DNA of 38,701 nucleotides. Source: Shigella phage ESh8. The position numbers were made by a program, and so were the translations under genes. Below the pieces are notes generated by a model that worked only from the letters and a program-made list of their open reading frames with translations, made no database searches and had not been told where the DNA came from. The number at the start of each line of letters is the position of its first letter. Position 1 is the stretch's first letter. Positions 4,050 to 10,747 of this stretch are shown one piece after another. The stretch is taken from sequence record ON528721; one strand, written 5' to 3'.

Positions 4050-4190
4050 GAGGGGACTTAAAGCTATTATATAGGTTAGTCATTCAGGTTATGCAATGAC
4101 CCTTTATGCACTTTAAGTCTACCTCTATGATTGGTGATATTATCATTGTATAATCACCCTACCTTAGAGCAACTGAAAGGAGGTGGCTCA

Positions 4191-4340
4191 ATGTTACGCT
4201 TGCTGATTGCCCTGCTGCGTCATAGAGTCACTTGGCGATTTCTTCTGGTACTTACTGCTACCCTTGGGTACGCAGGTCTTACTGACCACCTCGGTCAACT
4301 GGAAGTGGCCTTTTGCTCTATACTCTCTTGTGGGGATTAA
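4191..4340 (+). CDS. 19.5: gp19.5-like small protein, 49 aa (ORF track start 4131 is upstream of RBS; ATG 4191 preferred)
   Basis: MLRLLIALLRHRVTWRFLLVL... closely resembles T7 gp19.5 (49 aa); RBS AAAGGAGG. Confidence 0.8.
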   Translation: MLRLLIALLRHRVTWRFLLVLTATLGYAGLTDHLGQLEVAFCSILSCGD

Positions 4341-4419
4341 ATTATTGTTGATGACCGACAAGCGGCTCTGAGGGATTCGTAGGTATAGTTTCACTACACC
4401 AACTCATCCCTGTAGAGTC

Positions 4420-4910
4420 AACCCTAAAGGTTATACCTAAAGATGCCCTGTAGTTCGTAATGGTCTTACAGGGTCTTCTGGTGTCTCCTAGCTATCCCTT
4501 CGGGATGCACCTATGGTCTCACCTATGGTGTGGCCTTACCTAAAGTGGTTGCCTAAAGAGACCCTTTAAGTATTTACCACAAAAATCTGAATGGGTATCT
4601 CACAGTTCAAGAACCCAAAGTACCCCCATAGCCCTCCTAAAGCCACCTAAAGCCAGCCCTACCCCTAGGGTTTAACCTTCGGTTAACCTTGGGTATCTCC
4701 TCAAGTGGCCTATAGGATAGCCTAAAGTGTTGCCTAAAGTCAATACCTAAAGAGGTGGCTGCCTATTGGAGACTTAAAGAGTGTCCTAGTGTACCAGTTC
4801 GATAGTACATCTCTATGCGTCCCTATCTGTTAGCCTCATAAAGTAAACCCTAAAGCCGCCACCTAAAGACCAGACCTAAAGCCATCACCTAAAGAGTGCC
4901 GCTATCTTAA
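4420..4910 (+). repeat. Array of dispersed CCTAAAG-type heptamer repeats (about 13 copies) spanning the genome-end region
   Basis: CCTAAAG or ACCTAAAG seen at approx 4423, 4437, 4549, 4562, 4648, 4658, 4729, 4743, 4756, 4849, 4865, 4878, 4893; same motif class as T7 end-region short repeats. Confidence 0.8.
4598..4828 (+). repeat. Probable terminal repeat (single collapsed copy; boundaries approximate)
   Basis: Starts with TCTCACAGTTCAAGAACCCAAAGTACCCCCATAG, matching remembered T3/T7 left-end sequence pattern; lies between right-end genes (19.5) and left-end early promoters. Confidence 0.5.
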
Positions 4911-4976
4911 AGACAACCAGACCGATAGACCCATTGTTAACCTGTAGTGATGCCCTGTAGTTATCTGTAGTCAATT

Positions 4977-4999
4977 CAATTACCCTCACTAAAGGGAAT
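4977..4999 (+). promoter_or_regulatory. Variant phage RNAP promoter (phiOL-like), CAATTACCCTCACTAAAGGGAAT
   Basis: Core CCCTCACTAAAGGGA present, one A missing in upstream AATTAA box; position left of host promoters as phiOL in T7. Confidence 0.6.
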
Positions 5000-5052
5000 A
5001 AGGGATACTTAAAGAGGGAATAAGGGATTTAATAAAAGATTTAAATTAATGG

Positions 5053-5082
5053 TTGACTTTAAGTAACCCTTAAGGCTATTAT
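5053..5082 (+). promoter_or_regulatory. Host sigma70-type early promoter (A1-like): TTGACT - 18 nt - TATTAT
   Basis: -35 TTGACT at 5053, -10 TATTAT at 5077. Confidence 0.7.
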
Positions 5083-5181
5083 TCATCACGTCAACGGGAC
5101 AACGGCCTTAAAGCCACTCCCTGAGATACCGGAGTCAACCGGATAAGTAGACAGCCTGATAAGTCATACGAAAAACAGGCA

Positions 5182-5211
5182 TTGACAACATGAAGTAACA
5201 TGCAGTAAGAT
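5182..5211 (+). promoter_or_regulatory. Host sigma70-type early promoter (A2-like): TTGACA - 18 nt - TAAGAT
   Basis: Sequence TTGACAACATGAAGTAACATGCAGTAAGATAC is the remembered T7 A2 promoter. Confidence 0.8.
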
Positions 5212-5286
5212 ACACAGCGTCAACCGGACACAAGGTGTCTTCTAGGTGACTTAAGCGCACCACGGCACATAAAGTGAAACAAACGG

Positions 5287-5315
5287 TTGACAACATGAAG
5301 TAAGCACGGTACGAT
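5287..5315 (+). promoter_or_regulatory. Host sigma70-type early promoter (A3-like): TTGACA - 17 nt - TACGAT
   Basis: TTGACAACATGAAGTAAGCACGGTACGATGTACC matches remembered T7 A3. Confidence 0.8.
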
Positions 5316-5530
5316 GTACCACATGAAAGACACCGAGTGTCGTAGGTGTAAAAACGCGACATAGTGGATAGATGGCGAAAGCACAAGCGACCACGATAAT
5401 AAAGAGCTTGTCGCACTTATAACGCAAGTGACGGCTAACACTGAAATAGCCTCGGCTCAACGAAACTGTAGCCTAAAGTTCTTTAACAATCTGGATAATA
5501 GCTCTTGAGTGTACCGATGTATAAGCGAAT

Positions 5531-5572
5531 AACTCAAGGTCGCACTGAAAGCGTGGCCTTTATGATATTCAC
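5531..5572 (+). promoter_or_regulatory. RNase III-type processing hairpin upstream of gene 0.3 (R0.3-like)
   Basis: ACTCAAGGTCGCACTGAAAGCGTGGCCTTTATGAT; stem GGTCGCAC/GTGGCC with G-U pairs. Confidence 0.65.
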
Positions 5573-5602
5573 TTAACACGAACTAACATGAGGTAACACC
5601 AA

Positions 5603-6061
5603 ATGATTTTCACTAAAGAGCCTGCTAACGTCTTCTATGTACTGGTGTCAGCTTTCCGTTCTAACCTTGATGATGAGGTGAACATGAGCCGCCACCGCCA
5701 CATGGTTAGCACTTTACGTGCCGCACCGGGTCTTTATGGCTCCGTTGAGTCAACCGATTTGACCGGGTGCTATCGTGAGGCAATCGCAAGCGCACCGACT
5801 GAGGAAAAAACGGTTCGTGTACGCTGCAAGGACAAGGCGCAGGCACTCAATGTTGCACGATTAGCTTGCAATGAGTGGGAGCAAGATTGCGTACTGGTAT
5901 ACAAATCACAGACTCACACGGCTGGTCTGGTGTACGCTAAAGGTATCGACGGGTATAAGGCTGAACGCCTGCCGGGTAGCTTCCAAGAGGTTCCTAAAGG
6001 CGCACCACTGCAAGGCTGCTTTACGATTGACGAGTTCTGTCGCCGCTGGCAAGTACAGTAA
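5603..6061 (+). CDS. 0.3: S-adenosylmethionine-degrading enzyme (T3 SAMase, anti-restriction), 152 aa
   Basis: 152 aa; sequence MIFTKEPANVFYVLVSAFRSNL... recognised as T3 gp0.3 SAMase; first early gene after host promoters. Confidence 0.9.
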   Translation: MIFTKEPANVFYVLVSAFRSNLDDEVNMSRHRHMVSTLRAAPGLYGSVESTDLTGCYREAIASAPTEEKTVRVRCKDKAQALNVARLACNEWEQDCVLVYKSQTHTAGLVYAKGIDGYKAERLPGSFQEVPKGAPLQGCFTIDEFCRRWQVQ

Positions 6062-6065
6062 GTGA

Positions 6066-6108
6066 TAGACTCAAGGTCGCACTGTATGTGTGGCCTTTAT
6101 GATTATCA
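6066..6108 (+). promoter_or_regulatory. RNase III-type processing hairpin immediately downstream of gene 0.3
   Basis: ACTCAAGGTCGCACTGTATGTGTGGCCTTTATGATTATC. Confidence 0.65.
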
Positions 6109-6134
6109 CTTTAACATGCAATAGGACTAACACC

Positions 6135-6335
6135 ATGAGTAAACTTCTGGCAACCTCCAAAATCCAAGGACAATGCACTGTAACGCTGCGTGAGTATTAC
6201 CACGGGTCGATGGGATGCACCTATGTTGTGCGCTACGGCAAACAGGTCACGCACTGGGTAAACCCGATTTTAGCACAAGAGGATTATCAAGCCTGTGTGA
6301 TACACCAAGCAACATGTGCGGGCTGGAATGATTGA
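6135..6335 (+). CDS. Hypothetical early protein, 66 aa, Cys/His-containing
   Basis: ORF in early region; ATG 6135 chosen because the ORF-track GTG at 6090 lies inside the RNase III hairpin; weak RBS. Confidence 0.5.
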   Translation: MSKLLATSKIQGQCTVTLREYYHGSMGCTYVVRYGKQVTHWVNPILAQEDYQACVIHQATCAGWND

Positions 6336-6354
6336 CATTACAGGAGGATTAGCA

Positions 6355-6513
6355 ATGGCTATACTTATCACTATCGCACTCTTTGCGGTCGCTGGCTGGT
6401 ACTCTGAGTCACGCAAGGCCGCTCGCTATCATCGCAAGATGGTTAAACTCATGGAACACTTGGACGCAGAAGGGCGAGGCCGCGAGGCTATCGAACTGGT
6501 GAAACACGCATGA
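6355..6513 (+). CDS. Hypothetical early small membrane protein, 52 aa
   Basis: Strong RBS CAGGAGGA 7 nt upstream of ATG 6355; N-terminal hydrophobic helix AILITIALFAVAGWY. Confidence 0.6.
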   Translation: MAILITIALFAVAGWYSESRKAARYHRKMVKLMEHLDAEGRGREAIELVKHA

Positions 6514-6707
6514 TGATTCTCTTTATCGCACTGGTCTATCTGTGCATCGCTATGTACTTTATGCGAGACTTTAAGCGCGGTCTGGCAATACACAAGGCAA
6601 CGCTGAGTTACTTTAAGTGGGGATTCATCCCACGGTTTACGGTTCGTGAACGTAACGGACGCTTTAAGGCCAACAAGGTAGGAGTATTCTACATTGCTAC
6701 GCACTAA
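6510..6707 (+). CDS. Hypothetical early small membrane protein, 65 aa
   Basis: ATGA start/stop overlap with upstream ORF (translational coupling); N-terminal hydrophobic helix. Confidence 0.55.
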   Translation: MMILFIALVYLCIAMYFMRDFKRGLAIHKATLSYFKWGFIPRFTVRERNGRFKANKVGVFYIATH

Positions 6708-6756
6708 CTCAAAGCACGTAAAGATTGCACTGTATGCGATGGCTTATGGTGCATCG
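6706..6756 (+). promoter_or_regulatory. Degenerate RNase III-type hairpin (R0.5-like)
   Basis: ACTCAAAG...CACTGTATGCGATGGCTTATGG resembles the shared motif but with substitutions. Confidence 0.4.
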
Positions 6757-6878
6757 AAACGCAAGGTCAAACGCATCTTAACGAGACACCGCAAGATGAC
6801 CGCACGACAGGCTGCAAGCGCTGTCAAATGGGCTGAATTTACTCTTTACTCTTCTTACAGATAACAGGACACTGAACG

Positions 6879-7988
6879 ATGACTTTCACCGAAGCACAAG
6901 CCGCACTCGAAGCTATCCGCAACCTACCGATTGAGCGCCTGAACGAACGCCAGCCCATGCTGGTGGCTCTTGCGGCTGCTATCGTGAACGATGAGACTCA
7001 AGACGGCGAACTGACGCAGGCCAAAGGCAATTGGGGTCTGGAGTCTATGGACTACTGGCAGACACTGGCGGAGCGTATGCGTGATGTTGGATTTGTACGA
7101 TTGGGCAACGGTCACTTTAGCGCAGCATATGAGCACGCACTGTTACCGGGCAAGGTTATCAAGGTAGGCTTTAAGAAAGAGGACTCAGGCGCTGCCTATG
7201 CTGCCTTCTGCCGCATGAATCAGGGTCGTGAGGGTATCCCTACGGTGTACGACATTCAGCGTCATACAGGCTGCTACACGGTGGTCTTGGACTATCTGAC
7301 ACCACTTAACGATTGGTGCTACGGTGAAAGCGATAAGATTCGCCACCACTTTCAGGCTGCACAGGAAATCATTCAGGAGGATTGCTTCGATACCGCCGAA
7401 GAGTACCCGATAAGCGAGGGCTTCATTGAGACCTGCAAGGATATCCGCAAGTTCTTCTTAGGCATCGCATCGTTCGACTGTCACAGCGGTAACATGATGA
7501 AAGACCAGATGGGACGCCTGATTATCACAGACCCGGTATCATTCAGCGCAGACGACAAGTTAAAGCCGGGTGAATTTCACTGTGACCCGGATGAACTAAT
7601 CGCCGAGATTGAGGCGCTGAGAGCGCAGGAAGCGATTGACCGCTGTAAGGCACGCAAGGCACGCCGTGACCCTAAAGGAACCTTTCAGGTAGCACGTAAA
7701 GCACGTATCAAATGGCGCAGAAAGGCCTCTAAGCGTGAGAAGCGCAACGCTAAGGTACTCGCTAAGATGCGCATGGACGCCAATCAGAATCGCAGGGATG
7801 AGCCTAGGGCGCGTATGGTGTGGGGCGATAAGCACTGGCGCAACGCTTGGATGTACCACAATAACCTAAACTTTGCAGAACTGGAGCGTAAAGCCGCTGC
7901 GGTAATGATGATGCACGATGAGGTGCGCATTCAGTGGGGCAAACCGTTACACATAGACGCATACCTTGACAGGAGACTGCAAGGCTGA
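6879..7988 (+). CDS. 0.7: Serine/threonine protein kinase, host transcription shutoff (gp0.7), 369 aa
   Basis: N-terminal region with GNGHFSAAY...VIKVGFKKEDSGAAY...CRM..G..GIP.VYD matches T7 gp0.7 kinase; basic C-terminal half. Confidence 0.9.
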   Translation: MTFTEAQAALEAIRNLPIERLNERQPMLVALAAAIVNDETQDGELTQAKGNWGLESMDYWQTLAERMRDVGFVRLGNGHFSAAYEHALLPGKVIKVGFKKEDSGAAYAAFCRMNQGREGIPTVYDIQRHTGCYTVVLDYLTPLNDWCYGESDKIRHHFQAAQEIIQEDCFDTAEEYPISEGFIETCKDIRKFFLGIASFDCHSGNMMKDQMGRLIITDPVSFSADDKLKPGEFHCDPDELIAEIEALRAQEAIDRCKARKARRDPKGTFQVARKARIKWRRKASKREKRNAKVLAKMRMDANQNRRDEPRARMVWGDKHWRNAWMYHNNLNFAELERKAAAVMMMHDEVRIQWGKPLHIDAYLDRRLQG

Positions 7989-7989
7989 T

Positions 7990-8030
7990 AGAGTCTTTTC
8001 TTACAGGTCATCATGTGGTGGCCTGAATAG
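7990..8030 (+). promoter_or_regulatory. RNase III-type hairpin upstream of gene 1 (R1-like)
   Basis: ACAGGTCATCATGTGGTGGCCTGAATAGG; stem GGTCATCA/GTGGTGGCC-like. Confidence 0.45.
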
Positions 8031-8058
8031 GAACGATTTATTCACAATGAGGTAAGCA

Positions 8059-10713
8059 ATGAACATCATCGAAACTATCGAAAAGAATGACTTCTCCGAA
8101 ATCGAACTGGCTGCTATCCCGTTCAACACGCTGGCAGACCATTACGGTAGCGCATTGGCGCGTGAACAACTGGCTTTAGAGCATGAGTCTTATGAGCTAG
8201 GCGAGCGCCGCTTCCTCAAGATGCTTGAGCGTCAAGCGAAAGCTGGTGAGATTGCAGACAACGCAGCCGCTAAGCCATTACTCGCTACGCTTCTCCCTAA
8301 GTTAACCGCACGCATCGTTGAGTGGCTCGAAGAGTACGCCTCTAAGAAAGGCCGCAAGCCTGTAGCCTATGCACCACTCCAATCACTCAAGCCGGAGGCG
8401 TCCGCGTTTATCACGCTCAAGGTCATCCTTGCGTCACTGACCAGCACGAACATGACAACAATTCAGGCCGCTGCTGGTATGCTGGGGAAAGCCATTGAGG
8501 ACGAGGTACGTTTCGGTCGCATCCGTGACCTCGAAGCGAAGCACTTCAAGAAACACGTTGAGGAACAACTCAACAAGCGCCACGGGCAAGTCTACAAGAA
8601 AGCCTTTATGCAGGTGGTTGAGGCAGACATGATTGGTCGCGGGCTGCTGGGAGGTGAGGCGTGGTCTAGCTGGGACAAGGAAACCACGATGCACGTAGGG
8701 ATTCGCCTGATTGAAATGCTCATTGAGTCCACGGGTCTGGTGGAATTGCAGCGCCACAACGCAGGTAACGCAGGCTCTGACCATGAGGCACTACAACTGG
8801 CCCAAGAGTACGTCGATGTGTTAGCGAAGCGTGCAGGCGCTCTGGCGGGCATCTCTCCGATGTTCCAGCCGTGTGTCGTACCGCCGAAACCTTGGGTATC
8901 AATCACAGGTGGCGGCTATTGGGCTAACGGTCGCAGGCCTTTGGCACTCGTTCGCACCCACTCTAAGAAGGGACTGATGCGCTATGAGGATGTTTACATG
9001 CCAGAAGTTTACAAGGCGGTCAACATCGCACAGAACACCGCATGGAAAATCAACAAGAAAGTTCTTGCGGTTGTCAATGAGATTGTGAACTGGAAGAATT
9101 GCCCGGTCGCAGACATTCCATCACTGGAGCGCCAAGAGTTACCGCCTAAGCCGGACGACATTGACACCAACGAGGCAGCACTCAAGGAGTGGAAGAAAGC
9201 CGCCGCTGGTATCTACCGCTTGGACAAGGCACGAGTGTCTCGCCGTATCAGCTTAGAGTTCATGCTGGAGCAGGCCAACAAGTTCGCAAGTAAGAAAGCA
9301 ATCTGGTTCCCTTACAACATGGACTGGCGCGGTCGTGTGTACGCTGTACCGATGTTCAACCCGCAAGGCAACGACATGACCAAGGGTCTCCTAACCCTCG
9401 CTAAAGGCAAGCCAATCGGTGAGGAAGGGTTCTACTGGCTGAAAATCCACGGTGCGAACTGTGCGGGTGTCGATAAGGTTCCATTCCCTGAGCGCATCGC
9501 GTTCATCGAGAAGCACGTAGACGACATTCTGGCTTGCGCTAAAGACCCAATCAATAACACTTGGTGGGCCGAGCAGGATTCACCTTTCTGTTTCCTCGCG
9601 TTCTGCTTCGAGTATGCAGGCGTTGCGCACCACGGTCTGAGCTACAATTGCTCTCTGCCGCTGGCGTTCGATGGGTCTTGCTCTGGTATCCAGCACTTCT
9701 CCGCGATGCTGCGCGATGAGGTAGGCGGTCGTGCGGTTAACCTTCTGCCAAGCGAAACCGTGCAGGACATTTACGGCATCGTTGCGCAGAAAGTAAACGA
9801 GATTCTCAAACAGGATGCAATCAACGGCACACCTAACGAGATGATTACCGTGACCGACAAGGACACCGGGGAAATCTCAGAGAAGCTCAAGCTGGGAACC
9901 TCAACGCTGGCGCAACAGTGGCTGGCATATGGTGTAACCCGTAGCGTGACTAAACGTTCGGTCATGACGCTGGCTTACGGTTCCAAGGAGTTCGGCTTTC
10001 GTCAACAGGTACTGGACGACACCATTCAGCCTGCGATTGACAGCGGTAAGGGCTTGATGTTCACCCAACCGAACCAAGCGGCTGGCTATATGGCTAAGCT
10101 GATTTGGGACGCGGTGAGCGTGACCGTAGTCGCAGCGGTTGAGGCGATGAACTGGCTCAAGTCTGCCGCTAAGCTGCTGGCTGCTGAGGTCAAGGACAAG
10201 AAGACCAAGGAGATTCTGCGCCACCGTTGCGCGGTTCACTGGACTACGCCGGACGGCTTCCCGGTCTGGCAGGAATACCGCAAGCCACTCCAGAAGCGTC
10301 TTGATATGATTTTCTTAGGGCAATTCCGTCTGCAACCGACGATTAATACCCTCAAGGATTCAGGCATTGACGCACACAAGCAGGAGTCTGGCATCGCGCC
10401 TAACTTTGTTCACTCACAGGACGGTAGCCACCTACGCATGACAGTCGTTTATGCTCACGAGAAGTATGGCATTGAGTCCTTTGCGCTCATCCATGACAGC
10501 TTTGGGACTATCCCGGCAGACGCTGGTAAGCTCTTTAAGGCTGTGCGTGAAACGATGGTTCTCACCTACGAGAACAACGATGTGCTGGCAGACTTCTATG
10601 ACCAGTTTGCAGACCAGCTACACGAGACCCAACTGGACAAGATGCCTCCGCTTCCGAAGAAAGGAAATCTGAACCTGCAAGACATTCTCAAGTCTGACTT
10701 TGCCTTTGCATAA
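8059..10713 (+). CDS. 1: Single-subunit DNA-dependent RNA polymerase (T3-type), 884 aa
   Basis: 884 aa (T3 RNAP length); near-identical to remembered T3 RNAP sequence; C-terminus FAFA; matches the T3-type promoters found genome-wide. Confidence 0.98.
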   Translation: MNIIETIEKNDFSEIELAAIPFNTLADHYGSALAREQLALEHESYELGERRFLKMLERQAKAGEIADNAAAKPLLATLLPKLTARIVEWLEEYASKKGRKPVAYAPLQSLKPEASAFITLKVILASLTSTNMTTIQAAAGMLGKAIEDEVRFGRIRDLEAKHFKKHVEEQLNKRHGQVYKKAFMQVVEADMIGRGLLGGEAWSSWDKETTMHVGIRLIEMLIESTGLVELQRHNAGNAGSDHEALQLAQEYVDVLAKRAGALAGISPMFQPCVVPPKPWVSITGGGYWANGRRPLALVRTHSKKGLMRYEDVYMPEVYKAVNIAQNTAWKINKKVLAVVNEIVNWKNCPVADIPSLERQELPPKPDDIDTNEAALKEWKKAAAGIYRLDKARVSRRISLEFMLEQANKFASKKAIWFPYNMDWRGRVYAVPMFNPQGNDMTKGLLTLAKGKPIGEEGFYWLKIHGANCAGVDKVPFPERIAFIEKHVDDILACAKDPINNTWWAEQDSPFCFLAFCFEYAGVAHHGLSYNCSLPLAFDGSCSGIQHFSAMLRDEVGGRAVNLLPSETVQDIYGIVAQKVNEILKQDAINGTPNEMITVTDKDTGEISEKLKLGTSTLAQQWLAYGVTRSVTKRSVMTLAYGSKEFGFRQQVLDDTIQPAIDSGKGLMFTQPNQAAGYMAKLIWDAVSVTVVAAVEAMNWLKSAAKLLAAEVKDKKTKEILRHRCAVHWTTPDGFPVWQEYRKPLQKRLDMIFLGQFRLQPTINTLKDSGIDAHKQESGIAPNFVHSQDGSHLRMTVVYAHEKYGIESFALIHDSFGTIPADAGKLFKAVRETMVLTYENNDVLADFYDQFADQLHETQLDKMPPLPKKGNLNLQDILKSDFAFA

Positions 10714-10724
10714 CAAGCACTTAG

Positions 10725-10747
10725 CATTAACCCTCACTAACGGGAGA
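10725..10747 (+). promoter_or_regulatory. T3-type phage RNAP promoter, CATTAACCCTCACTAACGGGAGA
   Basis: Consensus match with A->C at +1 region; downstream of gene 1. Confidence 0.85.

Follow-up and report, generated by a model that had tools for sequence, protein, structure and literature searches.

Several small proteins of the early region of phage T7 offer a comparison for the genes treated here. Gp0.4, an inhibitor of FtsZ, is a small, acidic early protein of the same neighbourhood; gp0.5 is an uncharacterised class I protein associated with the membrane (PMC12798971, PMC11863960), and Gp0.6 has been reported to inhibit MreB (Molshanski-Mor et al. 2014, as cited in PMC6965359 and in bioRxiv 10.64898/2026.09.14.751387). 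Literature searches covering gp0.45, gp0.5, gp0.6 and the early proteins of Autographiviridae turned up no work on what the T3-type genes do.

The window, the whole stretch of 38,701 nucleotides from Shigella phage ESh8 (ON528721), is a complete, circularly permuted T3-like (Teetrevirus) genome, and all features located below are on its + strand. The sequence-only reading had placed three small ORFs between the genes of a SAM lyase and a protein kinase. Upstream lies gene 0.3, encoding S-adenosylmethionine lyase (5603..6061; Pfam PF23780, E = 6e-41; phrog_2226), and downstream gene 0.7, encoding the T3/T7-type protein kinase (6879..7988; phrog_2828, E = 2.9e-177, with a kinase annotation in related records). 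The three ORFs have exactly the lengths given (66, 52 and 65 aa), but the cluster is larger: a fourth gene, ORF4 (6694-6864), fills the remaining gap before the kinase. The interval consists of four accessory genes of class I (transcribed by host RNAP), all conserved and protein-coding, namely 0.45, an unnamed gene of the "0.5 slot", 0.6 and 0.65, and we hold the identity and gene status of these ORFs to be virtually certain. The earlier description of them as unmatched and uncharacterised stands insofar as tblastn detects no homology to T7 gp0.4 or gp0.5; it falls insofar as they were already annotated in T3-like phages. All four ORFs match PHROG families with E-values from 1e-25 to 1e-43 and are 97-100% identical to annotated proteins. 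They are ordinary accessory genes with putative functions, and their discovery in itself adds nothing, since they are already present in GenBank and PHROGs as hypothetical proteins.

The early, host-RNAP-transcribed location proposed for the cluster is borne out by the signals around it. Three sigma-70-type host promoters, equivalents of A1-A3, drive the early region (5053..5315); each agrees with 10 of 12 consensus positions (-35/-10 pairs TTGACT/TATTAT, TTGACA/TAAGAT and TTGACA/TACGAT), and A1-A3 are annotated at matching positions in the record of phiSG-JL2. No T3-type phage promoter is found between 4050 and 10725. The four small genes and the 0.7 kinase lie between two RNase III-type hairpins. 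The first, equivalent to R0.45/R0.5, would start the 0.45-0.7 mRNA (6060..6111; -22.8 kcal/mol, z = -3.1); none of 200 shuffles folds as well, and the records of phiSG-JL2 and T3 carry a stem_loop at the corresponding position. The second, annotated as R1 in T3 and phiSG-JL2, would end this mRNA (7986..8044; -22.5 kcal/mol, z = -3.0). A third RNase III-like hairpin at the junction of ORF3 and ORF4 was considered and is not supported (z = -1.45). Rfam returned no RNA family within 4300-8200.

Genes as short as these could be chance reading frames or annotation artefacts, in a region serving merely as spacer and RNA-processing sequence. Reading frames of 50-66 codons often arise by chance, positions 4500-9000 are overlapped by 62 ORFs of 25 aa or more, and outside PHROGs no protein family library recognises the ORFs of the cluster. 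However, all four evolve as coding sequence in their stated frames. In the annotated frame, pN/pS is 0.17 for ORF1, 0.37 for ORF2 and 0.32 for ORF3, against 0.73-2.56 when the same DNA is read in the two remaining frames, and this frame-specific selection effectively refutes the artefact, whose probability we consider close to nil. Moreover, length and motifs are kept down to 35-60% identity, Shine-Dalgarno sequences and ATGA coupling are present, and the ORFs are packed closely along the coding strand of the interval. The earlier reading had also allowed that the ORFs might be absent from related phages; they are conserved there as coding genes, and homologues of ORF1, ORF2 and ORF3 are found by tblastn in 152, 46 and 573 phage records, respectively.

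The new point is the organization of the region. The early region is a fixed series of independently exchangeable cassette slots, common to the Studiervirinae: slot A holds SAM lyase or Ocr, slot B T7 gp0.4, slot C gp0.45, slot D T7 gp0.5 or the ORF2 type, slot E T7 gp0.6A or T3 gp0.6, and slot F variants of 0.65/0.6B, followed by the kinase. The occupants were counted in 80 viral contigs anchored on the kinase. The T3-type 0.6 is present in 63 of them and the T7-type 0.6A in 14; no contig carries both, and three carry neither, two of which contain less than 1,200 nt of sequence upstream of the kinase. Essentially no genome leaves slot E empty, and its occupant is always exactly one of two proteins unrelated to each other. 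The exclusivity of the two types gives a Fisher p of 4.5e-13, a value that overstates independence because the contigs are phylogenetically related. ORF1 is found at its canonical place in about 14 of the 80 contigs, ORF2 in a single one. All four combinations of slot D and slot E occur, and abutting coordinates imply the same ATG/TGA overlap between the two slots in T7 and in recombinants combining ORF2 with the T7-type 0.6A.

In slot C, ESh8 carries ORF1 (6135..6335), the 66-aa soluble product of gene 0.45 (phrog_6500, E = 1.1e-43). It is 97% identical, over an equal length, to gp0.45 of phiSG-JL2, whose gene sits at the same position after the R0.45 hairpin; synteny likewise places the family behind the 0.3/0.4 genes. 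T3 itself, unlike phiSG-JL2 and ESh8, lacks this gene. For ORF1, AlphaFold predicts a beta-meander and a helix at low confidence (pLDDT 64), and a profile sequence search of solved structures gave only noise (E ~1). One of the ORFs had been called Cys/His-rich. The composition holds for ORF1 (4 Cys, 3 His), but the feature is weak: only C54 and H57 are invariant, while among the homologues C28 is mostly replaced by Ser, C14 is variable and C61 is lost in two. A Cys/His metal-binding (zinc-finger-like) protein was rejected, as there are no four conserved ligands and no Pfam match. ORF1 is not a replacement of T7 gp0.4 either, since the two co-occur in the same genomes; gp0.4 is unrelated in sequence to the ORFs of the cluster (no tblastn cross-matches). 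ORF1 may act as a small soluble binder.

Slot D is occupied by ORF2 (6355..6513; phrog_25811, E = 1.9e-38), a 52-aa single-pass membrane protein with a predicted transmembrane segment at approximately residues 2-16 and a conserved tail containing the motif LDAEGRG.EA. Many records annotate it as "hypothetical protein", and it has no gene name. Some records use an in-frame upstream ATG at 6328; ATG 6355, giving the 52-aa form, is favoured as the probable start because a strong AGGAGG lies 7 nt before it and because of the N-termini of divergent homologues. One homologue, in the 0.5 slot of the Teseptimavirus Bas65, is 41% identical and keeps the motif. In its own frame pN/pS is 0.37 compared with 0.95-1.79 in the other frames; in one comparison the constraint is weak (omega 0.95 vs. 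L043), with changes near the membrane boundary. T7 gp0.5 resembles ORF2 in being small, hydrophobic, optional, located in slot D and coupled to slot E, T7 gene 0.5 overlapping 0.6A by ATGA just as ORF2 overlaps ORF3. The two types are never found together and share no sequence similarity (no tblastn cross-match in ORF2-type loci). Nearly the whole of T7 gp0.5 is hydrophobic; ORF2, by contrast, consists of one transmembrane helix and a conserved, charged helical tail.

The ATGA overlap noted in the first reading is confirmed at 6510-6513, where the ATG of ORF3 overlaps the TGA of ORF2. ORF3 (6510..6707) is gene 0.6 of T3 (0.6A), encoding a 65-aa membrane-anchored protein. It matches phrog_2385 over residues 1-65 (E = 9.2e-30) and is 91% identical to T3 gp0.6, which has the same length of 65 aa and the same place upstream of 0.65 and the kinase. 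The gene is called 0.6A in phiSG-JL2 and phiYeO3-12; in phiSG-JL2 it contains a 14-aa in-frame duplication that ORF3 of ESh8 lacks. Its relatives form 117 clusters of 61-74 aa. In an alignment of 59 sequences, 19 columns are invariant, mostly within the C-terminal 25 residues, and all of them are present in the ESh8 protein, which has both the N-terminal transmembrane helix and the invariant C-terminal motif PRFTVR..NGRFKANKVG.FY.ATH.

N-terminal transmembrane helices had been assigned to two of the ORFs, and these are ORF2 and ORF3: the best 17-residue Kyte-Doolittle means are 1.95 (from residue 1) and 2.58 (from residue 2), respectively. For ORF3, AlphaFold (pLDDT 91) places the transmembrane helix at residues 2-27, followed by a basic, three-stranded beta domain; the tail contains 11 K+R against 2 D+E. 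An N-out/C-in topology in the inner membrane is likely for both proteins, and their conserved tails would then face the cytoplasm, as the N-terminal tails are 1-2 residues long and the C-terminal flanks are positive. The fold of ORF3 retrieved only its own family from BFVD with Foldseek, a profile sequence search found nothing in solved structures, and a search with the family profile among 1.84 billion representatives yielded 11 proteins, all of them small phage proteins. The predicted cytoplasmic domain shows no variation among phages that infect Klebsiella, Escherichia, Yersinia, Pectobacterium, Erwinia and Serratia; hence, its target should be a conserved host component and not a variable defence.

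ORF4 (6694..6864; phrog_10380, E = 3.7e-25), in slot F, is gene 0.65 of T3, corresponding to the "0.6B" tail of phiSG-JL2; its product, about 56 aa long, is very basic. Compared with L017, the gene shows a pS of 0.72 and a pN of 0.27, an asymmetry that is not seen in the other frames. It shares 14 nt with the 3' end of ORF3, and TTG 6694 and ATG 6739 are its candidate starts. The joined 0.6B of the phiSG-JL2 and T7 records (labelled "possible" in T7) and the 119-aa "Putative 0.6B protein" of phiYeO3-12 in UniProt suggest that ORF3 and ORF4 could instead form one product of ~120 aa, joined near the ORF3 stop by a programmed +1 frameshift and serving as the functional unit. The last 26 nt before this stop are open in the +1 frame, the homology of ORF4 starts at the junction, and T7-type and T3-type genomes alike conserve the sequence of the junction. 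Yet neither a canonical +1 slippery site (none is prfB-like) nor a slow A-site codon is visible in the overlap of 8 codons, and many genomes with ORF3 leave slot F empty or fill it with unrelated ORFs. Independent initiation of ORF4 is sufficient, as a start codon with a Shine-Dalgarno sequence precedes the ORF3 stop. In most lineages this is an ATG at a distance of 17 nt, and in the T3 group a TTG at 14 nt, itself preceded by AGGAG (6680-6684 in ESh8) 9 nt upstream. T3 annotates 0.65 as an independently started gene, with a UUG start. The ATG could also owe its conservation to the Tyr-Val codons of ORF3, which are themselves conserved. A frameshifted fusion seems very unlikely.

ORF3 can be set against the other occupant of slot E. 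T7 gp0.6A and ORF3 take the same slot to the exclusion of each other, and both are small and very basic (53 vs. 65 aa, pI 10.4 vs. 10.5, 11 K+R each). T7 gp0.6A, on the contrary, has no transmembrane segment and is soluble, while ORF3 has its helix. Homology is not detected: hhalign aligns the last 13 residues only, at a probability of 4.8%, and tblastn gives no cross-match. The one-for-one replacement, together with the reported inhibition of MreB by T7 Gp0.6, suggests that ORF3 is most plausibly a non-homologous functional counterpart of T7 gp0.6A, although we would give this less than even prospects. In that role ORF3, a small effector, would target MreB or the elongasome on the cytoplasmic side of the inner membrane. 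ORF2, ATGA-coupled to whichever gene fills slot E, would most likely partner or modulate this effector from within the membrane, a part that T7 gp0.5 would play in its own genome. The best explanation overall, exchangeable early cassettes with ORF3 acting on MreB/elongasome and ORF2 as its partner, stands in our judgement at about an even chance. A bolder form of it appears unlikely: T3-type gp0.6 could be the founder of a group of phage-restricted, membrane-anchored mini-effectors, with a fold unseen in solved structures, displacing T7 gp0.6A against MreB/elongasome or another conserved inner-membrane-associated machine, with ORF2 or T7 gp0.5 as the slot-D partner.

The sequence-only reading had put forward cell division, defence inhibition and exclusion as possible roles; none of these is backed by a match to a library or a structure. 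Scans of the four proteins against Pfam, NCBIfam and PADLOC gave nothing meaningful, the sole match being ORF4 to an arginyltransferase at E = 0.04, and none of the four has a relative in the PDB. Inhibition of host immunity by at least one small protein of the cluster, with the patchily distributed ORF1 and ORF2 as the likeliest candidates, would suit the neighbourhood, since the pre-early region encodes SAM lyase, Ocr and the kinase as anti-defence proteins (PMC11680406), and the 0.7-type kinase has been reported, in a 2026 paper (PMC13645617), to disarm bacterial defences. The sporadic, accessory distribution of ORF1 and ORF2 and the omega of ~0.95 of ORF2 against one relative are also in line with it. 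Still, no match to any characterised family was obtained; in PADLOC, which contains models of defence and not of anti-defence, the four proteins have no match at E up to 1. The pooled pN/pS of ORF1, 0.14 across phages of many host genera, is less typical of a fast-evolving counter-defence protein, and with its low-confidence model the fold matches are leads only. ORF3 is near-universal, and the invariance of its domain argues for a core host target. We therefore regard anti-defence as a rather unlikely role for the cluster, and for ORF3 the one functional lead obtained, a positional one, points to a possible takeover of cell envelope or cell shape.

The membrane location of ORF2 and ORF3, both predicted inner-membrane proteins of the first minutes of infection, could also serve to block the DNA of a later T7-like phage, or to aid the entry of the phage's own genome. 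In 1976, Hirsch-Kauffmann et al. reportedly found that mutual and superinfection exclusion of T3 and T7 needs early protein synthesis, and we know of no gene identified as being behind it. Some exclusion proteins, for example T4 Sp, act in the periplasm, whereas the prediction for ORF2 and ORF3 puts their conserved domains in the cytoplasm; furthermore, the alternative occupant of slot E, T7 gp0.6A, is soluble. T7 gp0.5, the counterpart in slot D, is membrane-associated (PMC12798971), as exclusion or membrane conditioning would lead one to expect. A search of titles and abstracts found no paper on superinfection exclusion in the T7 group. Taken together, such a function is distinctly improbable.

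Should the action of ORF3 and its slot-D partner on MreB/elongasome prove true, it would provide the first function for the long-uncharacterised T7 gp0.5 slot, for which the slot analysis suggests a partner role, and a further case, beside SAM lyase and Ocr, in which unrelated proteins replace each other in a host-takeover function. The slot analysis may be useful in itself. About 570 sequenced phages, many therapeutic Klebsiella phages among them, contain the ORF3 family.

The phage phiYeO3-12 is said to tolerate insertions and deletions in its genes 0.3-0.7 (attributed to Kiljunen et al., 2005), and T3 itself also does without ORF2; any benefit of these genes should therefore be conditional. 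At their 3' ends, the two slot-E genes share a junction of ~35 nt, and T7 gp0.6A and ORF3 have in common their last residues, NK[IV]G..Y..TH. With regard to the MreB analogy, the exclusivity of the two could reflect cassette exchange at this shared recombination junction and not a shared function.

The window is a complete genome of a T3-like (Teetrevirus) phage in a circularly permuted assembly, with the physical left end of phiSG-JL2 aligning at 4598. Across its segment 6000-6900, identity is 98.7% with Salmonella phage 1Sgal1PP and 95-97% with a large number of Klebsiella, Escherichia, Serratia, Pantoea and Citrobacter phages. Three small ORFs on the plus strand are located in this segment, between the genes of the SAM lyase (5603-6061; Pfam PF23780, E = 6e-41) and the 0.7 kinase (6879-7988; phrog_2828, E = 2.9e-177). 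Because three sigma-70-type promoters lie upstream (5053-5315, each with 10 of 12 consensus positions, counterparts of the annotated A1-A3 of phiSG-JL2) and none of the 12 T3-type phage promoters of the window falls within 4050-10725, the cluster belongs to the class I region transcribed by the host RNA polymerase, as the sequence-only reading had proposed. Three stable RNase III-type hairpins (5520-5575, 6060-6111 and 7986-8044; z about -3), for which Rfam returned no family, flank the 0.3 mRNA and the 0.45-0.7 mRNA. The SAM lyase gene contains an in-frame internal ATG at 5684, which matches the internal start annotated as 0.3B in T3 and phiSG-JL2.

ORF1 (6135-6335, 66 aa) shares 97% identity with phiSG-JL2 gp0.45, and ORF3 (6510-6707, 65 aa) shares 91% with T3 gene 0.6. 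ORF2 (6355-6513, 52 aa; phrog_25811) is nameless, being a "hypothetical protein" in many records, e.g., ORF3 of Citrobacter phage SH2 (PMC4925675). T3 differs in lacking both ORF1 and ORF2. These boundaries are exactly those first read, as is the ATGA overlap of ORF2 and ORF3, found at 6510-6513; the cluster is not limited to three genes, however, as a fourth (6694-6864) had been overlooked. This ORF4 is T3 gene 0.65 (phrog_10380, E = 3.7e-25). Against diverged relatives, pN/pS in the stated frames is 0.17, 0.37 and 0.32 for ORF1, ORF2 and ORF3, and 0.27/0.72 for ORF4, versus 0.7-2.6 in the two alternative frames of the same DNA. Chance ORFs are ruled out by this frame specificity, and judged on codon-level conservation, ORF1-ORF4 are genuine genes. 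ORF1 is preceded by AGGA and ORF2 by AGGAGG; ORF3 has almost no Shine-Dalgarno sequence, consistent with translational coupling to ORF2.

By tblastn, homologues of ORF1, ORF2 and ORF3 are found in 152, 46 and 573 phage records, respectively. Related clusters in a large protein collection (17, 11 and 117) contain only small proteins, and the longest contigs carrying them are ~40 kb, the genome size of a T7-like phage. When 1.84 billion representative proteins were searched with an ORF3-family profile, only 11 matched, none longer than 93 aa and none with the domain embedded in a larger protein. The description of ORF1 as Cys/His-rich proved weak: of its Cys and His residues, all homologues share only C54 and H57. 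The failure to match the ORFs to T7 gp0.4, gp0.5 or gp0.6A was justified, tblastn giving no cross-hits; hhalign aligned only the last 13 residues of gp0.6A with the ORF3 family, at a probability of 4.8%. All four genes are already annotated and grouped in PHROGs, and the finding is in itself ordinary.

ORF4 encodes a very basic protein (pI 11.4) and overlaps the end of ORF3 by 14 nt. Its sequence is annotated in phiSG-JL2 as the tail of a frameshifted "0.6B", and expression of ORF3-ORF4 as one +1 fusion is annotated in some records. Such a fusion seems the less likely reading: no recognisable slippery site was found at the overlap, and ORF4 has candidate starts of its own, a TTG at 6694 placed 9 nt past AGGAG (UUG is the start in the T3 annotation) or an internal ATG at 6739. 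In most lineages, an ATG is conserved 17 nt before the ORF3 stop, replaced in the T3 group by a TTG 14 nt before it; conservation of the Tyr-Val codons of ORF3 could also account for this ATG.

The main new result came from placing the window proteins, together with T7 Ocr, gp0.4, gp0.5, gp0.6A and the 0.6B tail, on the collected loci. Judged by gene order, the early region is a fixed series of exchangeable cassettes: SAM lyase or Ocr, sometimes both (slot A), gp0.4 (B), gp0.45 (C), T7 gp0.5 or the ORF2 type (D), T7 gp0.6A or T3 gp0.6 (E) and 0.65/0.6B variants (F), followed by the kinase. All four slot D/E combinations were observed; in T7 and in recombinants joining ORF2 to T7 0.6A, the two slots abut as an ATG/TGA overlap requires. 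ORF1 co-occurs with gp0.4, which rules it out as a gp0.4 replacement. A divergent gp0.45-like paralogue (~37% identity) is placed differently from ORF1, upstream of the SAM lyase/Ocr gene, in Przondovirus-like genomes (locus L029, 1696-1836, and about 10 of the 80 kinase-anchored contigs, L062-L141).

Slot E provides a modest, testable lead. To avoid ascertainment bias, it was counted in 80 distinct viral contigs with the kinase as sole anchor: 63 carry only the T3-type 0.6, 14 only the T7-type 0.6A, none both and three neither. If the two types occurred independently, about 11 contigs should carry both and about 14 neither (Fisher p = 4.5e-13, a significance inflated by shared ancestry). Of the three contigs with neither, two have less than 1,200 nt of sequence ahead of the kinase; the third, L079 (IMGVR_UViG_2700988866_000001), lacks both proteins although its upstream stretch is at least 1,200 nt long, and may contain a third, unrecognised cassette. 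Similarity between the two genes is confined to ~35 nt at their 3' ends (AACAAGrTAGG...CTATG...AACGCACTrA), a stretch that includes the start of the slot F gene (window 6660-6710; T7 locus 950-1000; locus L026 1606-1721). In L026, a T3-type 0.6 is joined to a T7-type 0.6B tail, which suggests that cassettes recombine at this junction.

ORF2 and ORF3 both start with a strongly hydrophobic stretch, in agreement with the N-terminal transmembrane helices noticed earlier. In the high-confidence AlphaFold model of ORF3 (pLDDT 91), a TM helix (2-27) is followed by three strands (31-36, 40-46 and 52-57) and a second, short helix (59-63). Its tail is very basic (11 K+R against 2 D+E) and holds nearly all 19 invariant positions. 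With an N-tail of 1-2 residues and positive charge past the helix, the positive-inside rule predicts an N-out/C-in topology. ORF2 has the same layout, and its tail motif LDAEGRG.EA is kept in a Teseptimavirus Bas65 homologue of ~41% identity. In phiSG-JL2 gp0.6A (2105-2344 of its locus), 14 aa directly past the TM helix are duplicated in tandem and in frame (FKRGLAIHKATLSY x2), which indicates a juxtamembrane segment tolerant of lengthening. In a metagenomic relative (L042, 2656-2934), an extra 92-aa membrane protein separates the ORF2 and ORF3 homologues; hence, their adjacency is not obligatory.

According to Molshanski-Mor et al. 2014, as cited in PMC6965359 and bioRxiv 10.64898/2026.09.14.751387, T7 Gp0.6 targets MreB and makes cells lemon-shaped. 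The filling of slot E by exactly one of two proteins, a pattern shared with SAM lyase/Ocr in slot A, suggests a common benefit. The predicted cytoplasmic domain of ORF3 is invariant among phages of many enterobacterial genera, which favours a conserved host target over a variable immune system, and a basic, membrane-anchored domain at the inner leaflet would be well placed to meet MreB. The best single hypothesis, still a tentative one, is that ORF3 is a non-homologous functional counterpart of Gp0.6, a step from slot to function that we infer. The predicted membrane proteins ORF2 and ORF3 could act in superinfection exclusion, but prediction places their conserved domains in the cytoplasm, and T7 gp0.6A, the other occupant of slot E, is soluble. 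For the sporadic ORF1 and ORF2, an anti-defence role is reasonable, although nothing positive was found in its favour. ORF2 may be a membrane partner of the slot E protein, as would T7 gp0.5, itself still uncharacterised (PMC12798971, PMC11863960). Large myoviruses (Justusliebigvirus and Aeromonas phage Aeh1; PQ529420, OZ035773, NC_005260) also carry homologues of T7 gp0.6A, at 49-59% identity, so that the reported MreB inhibitor, unlike the T3-type 0.6, is mobile well beyond T7-like phages.
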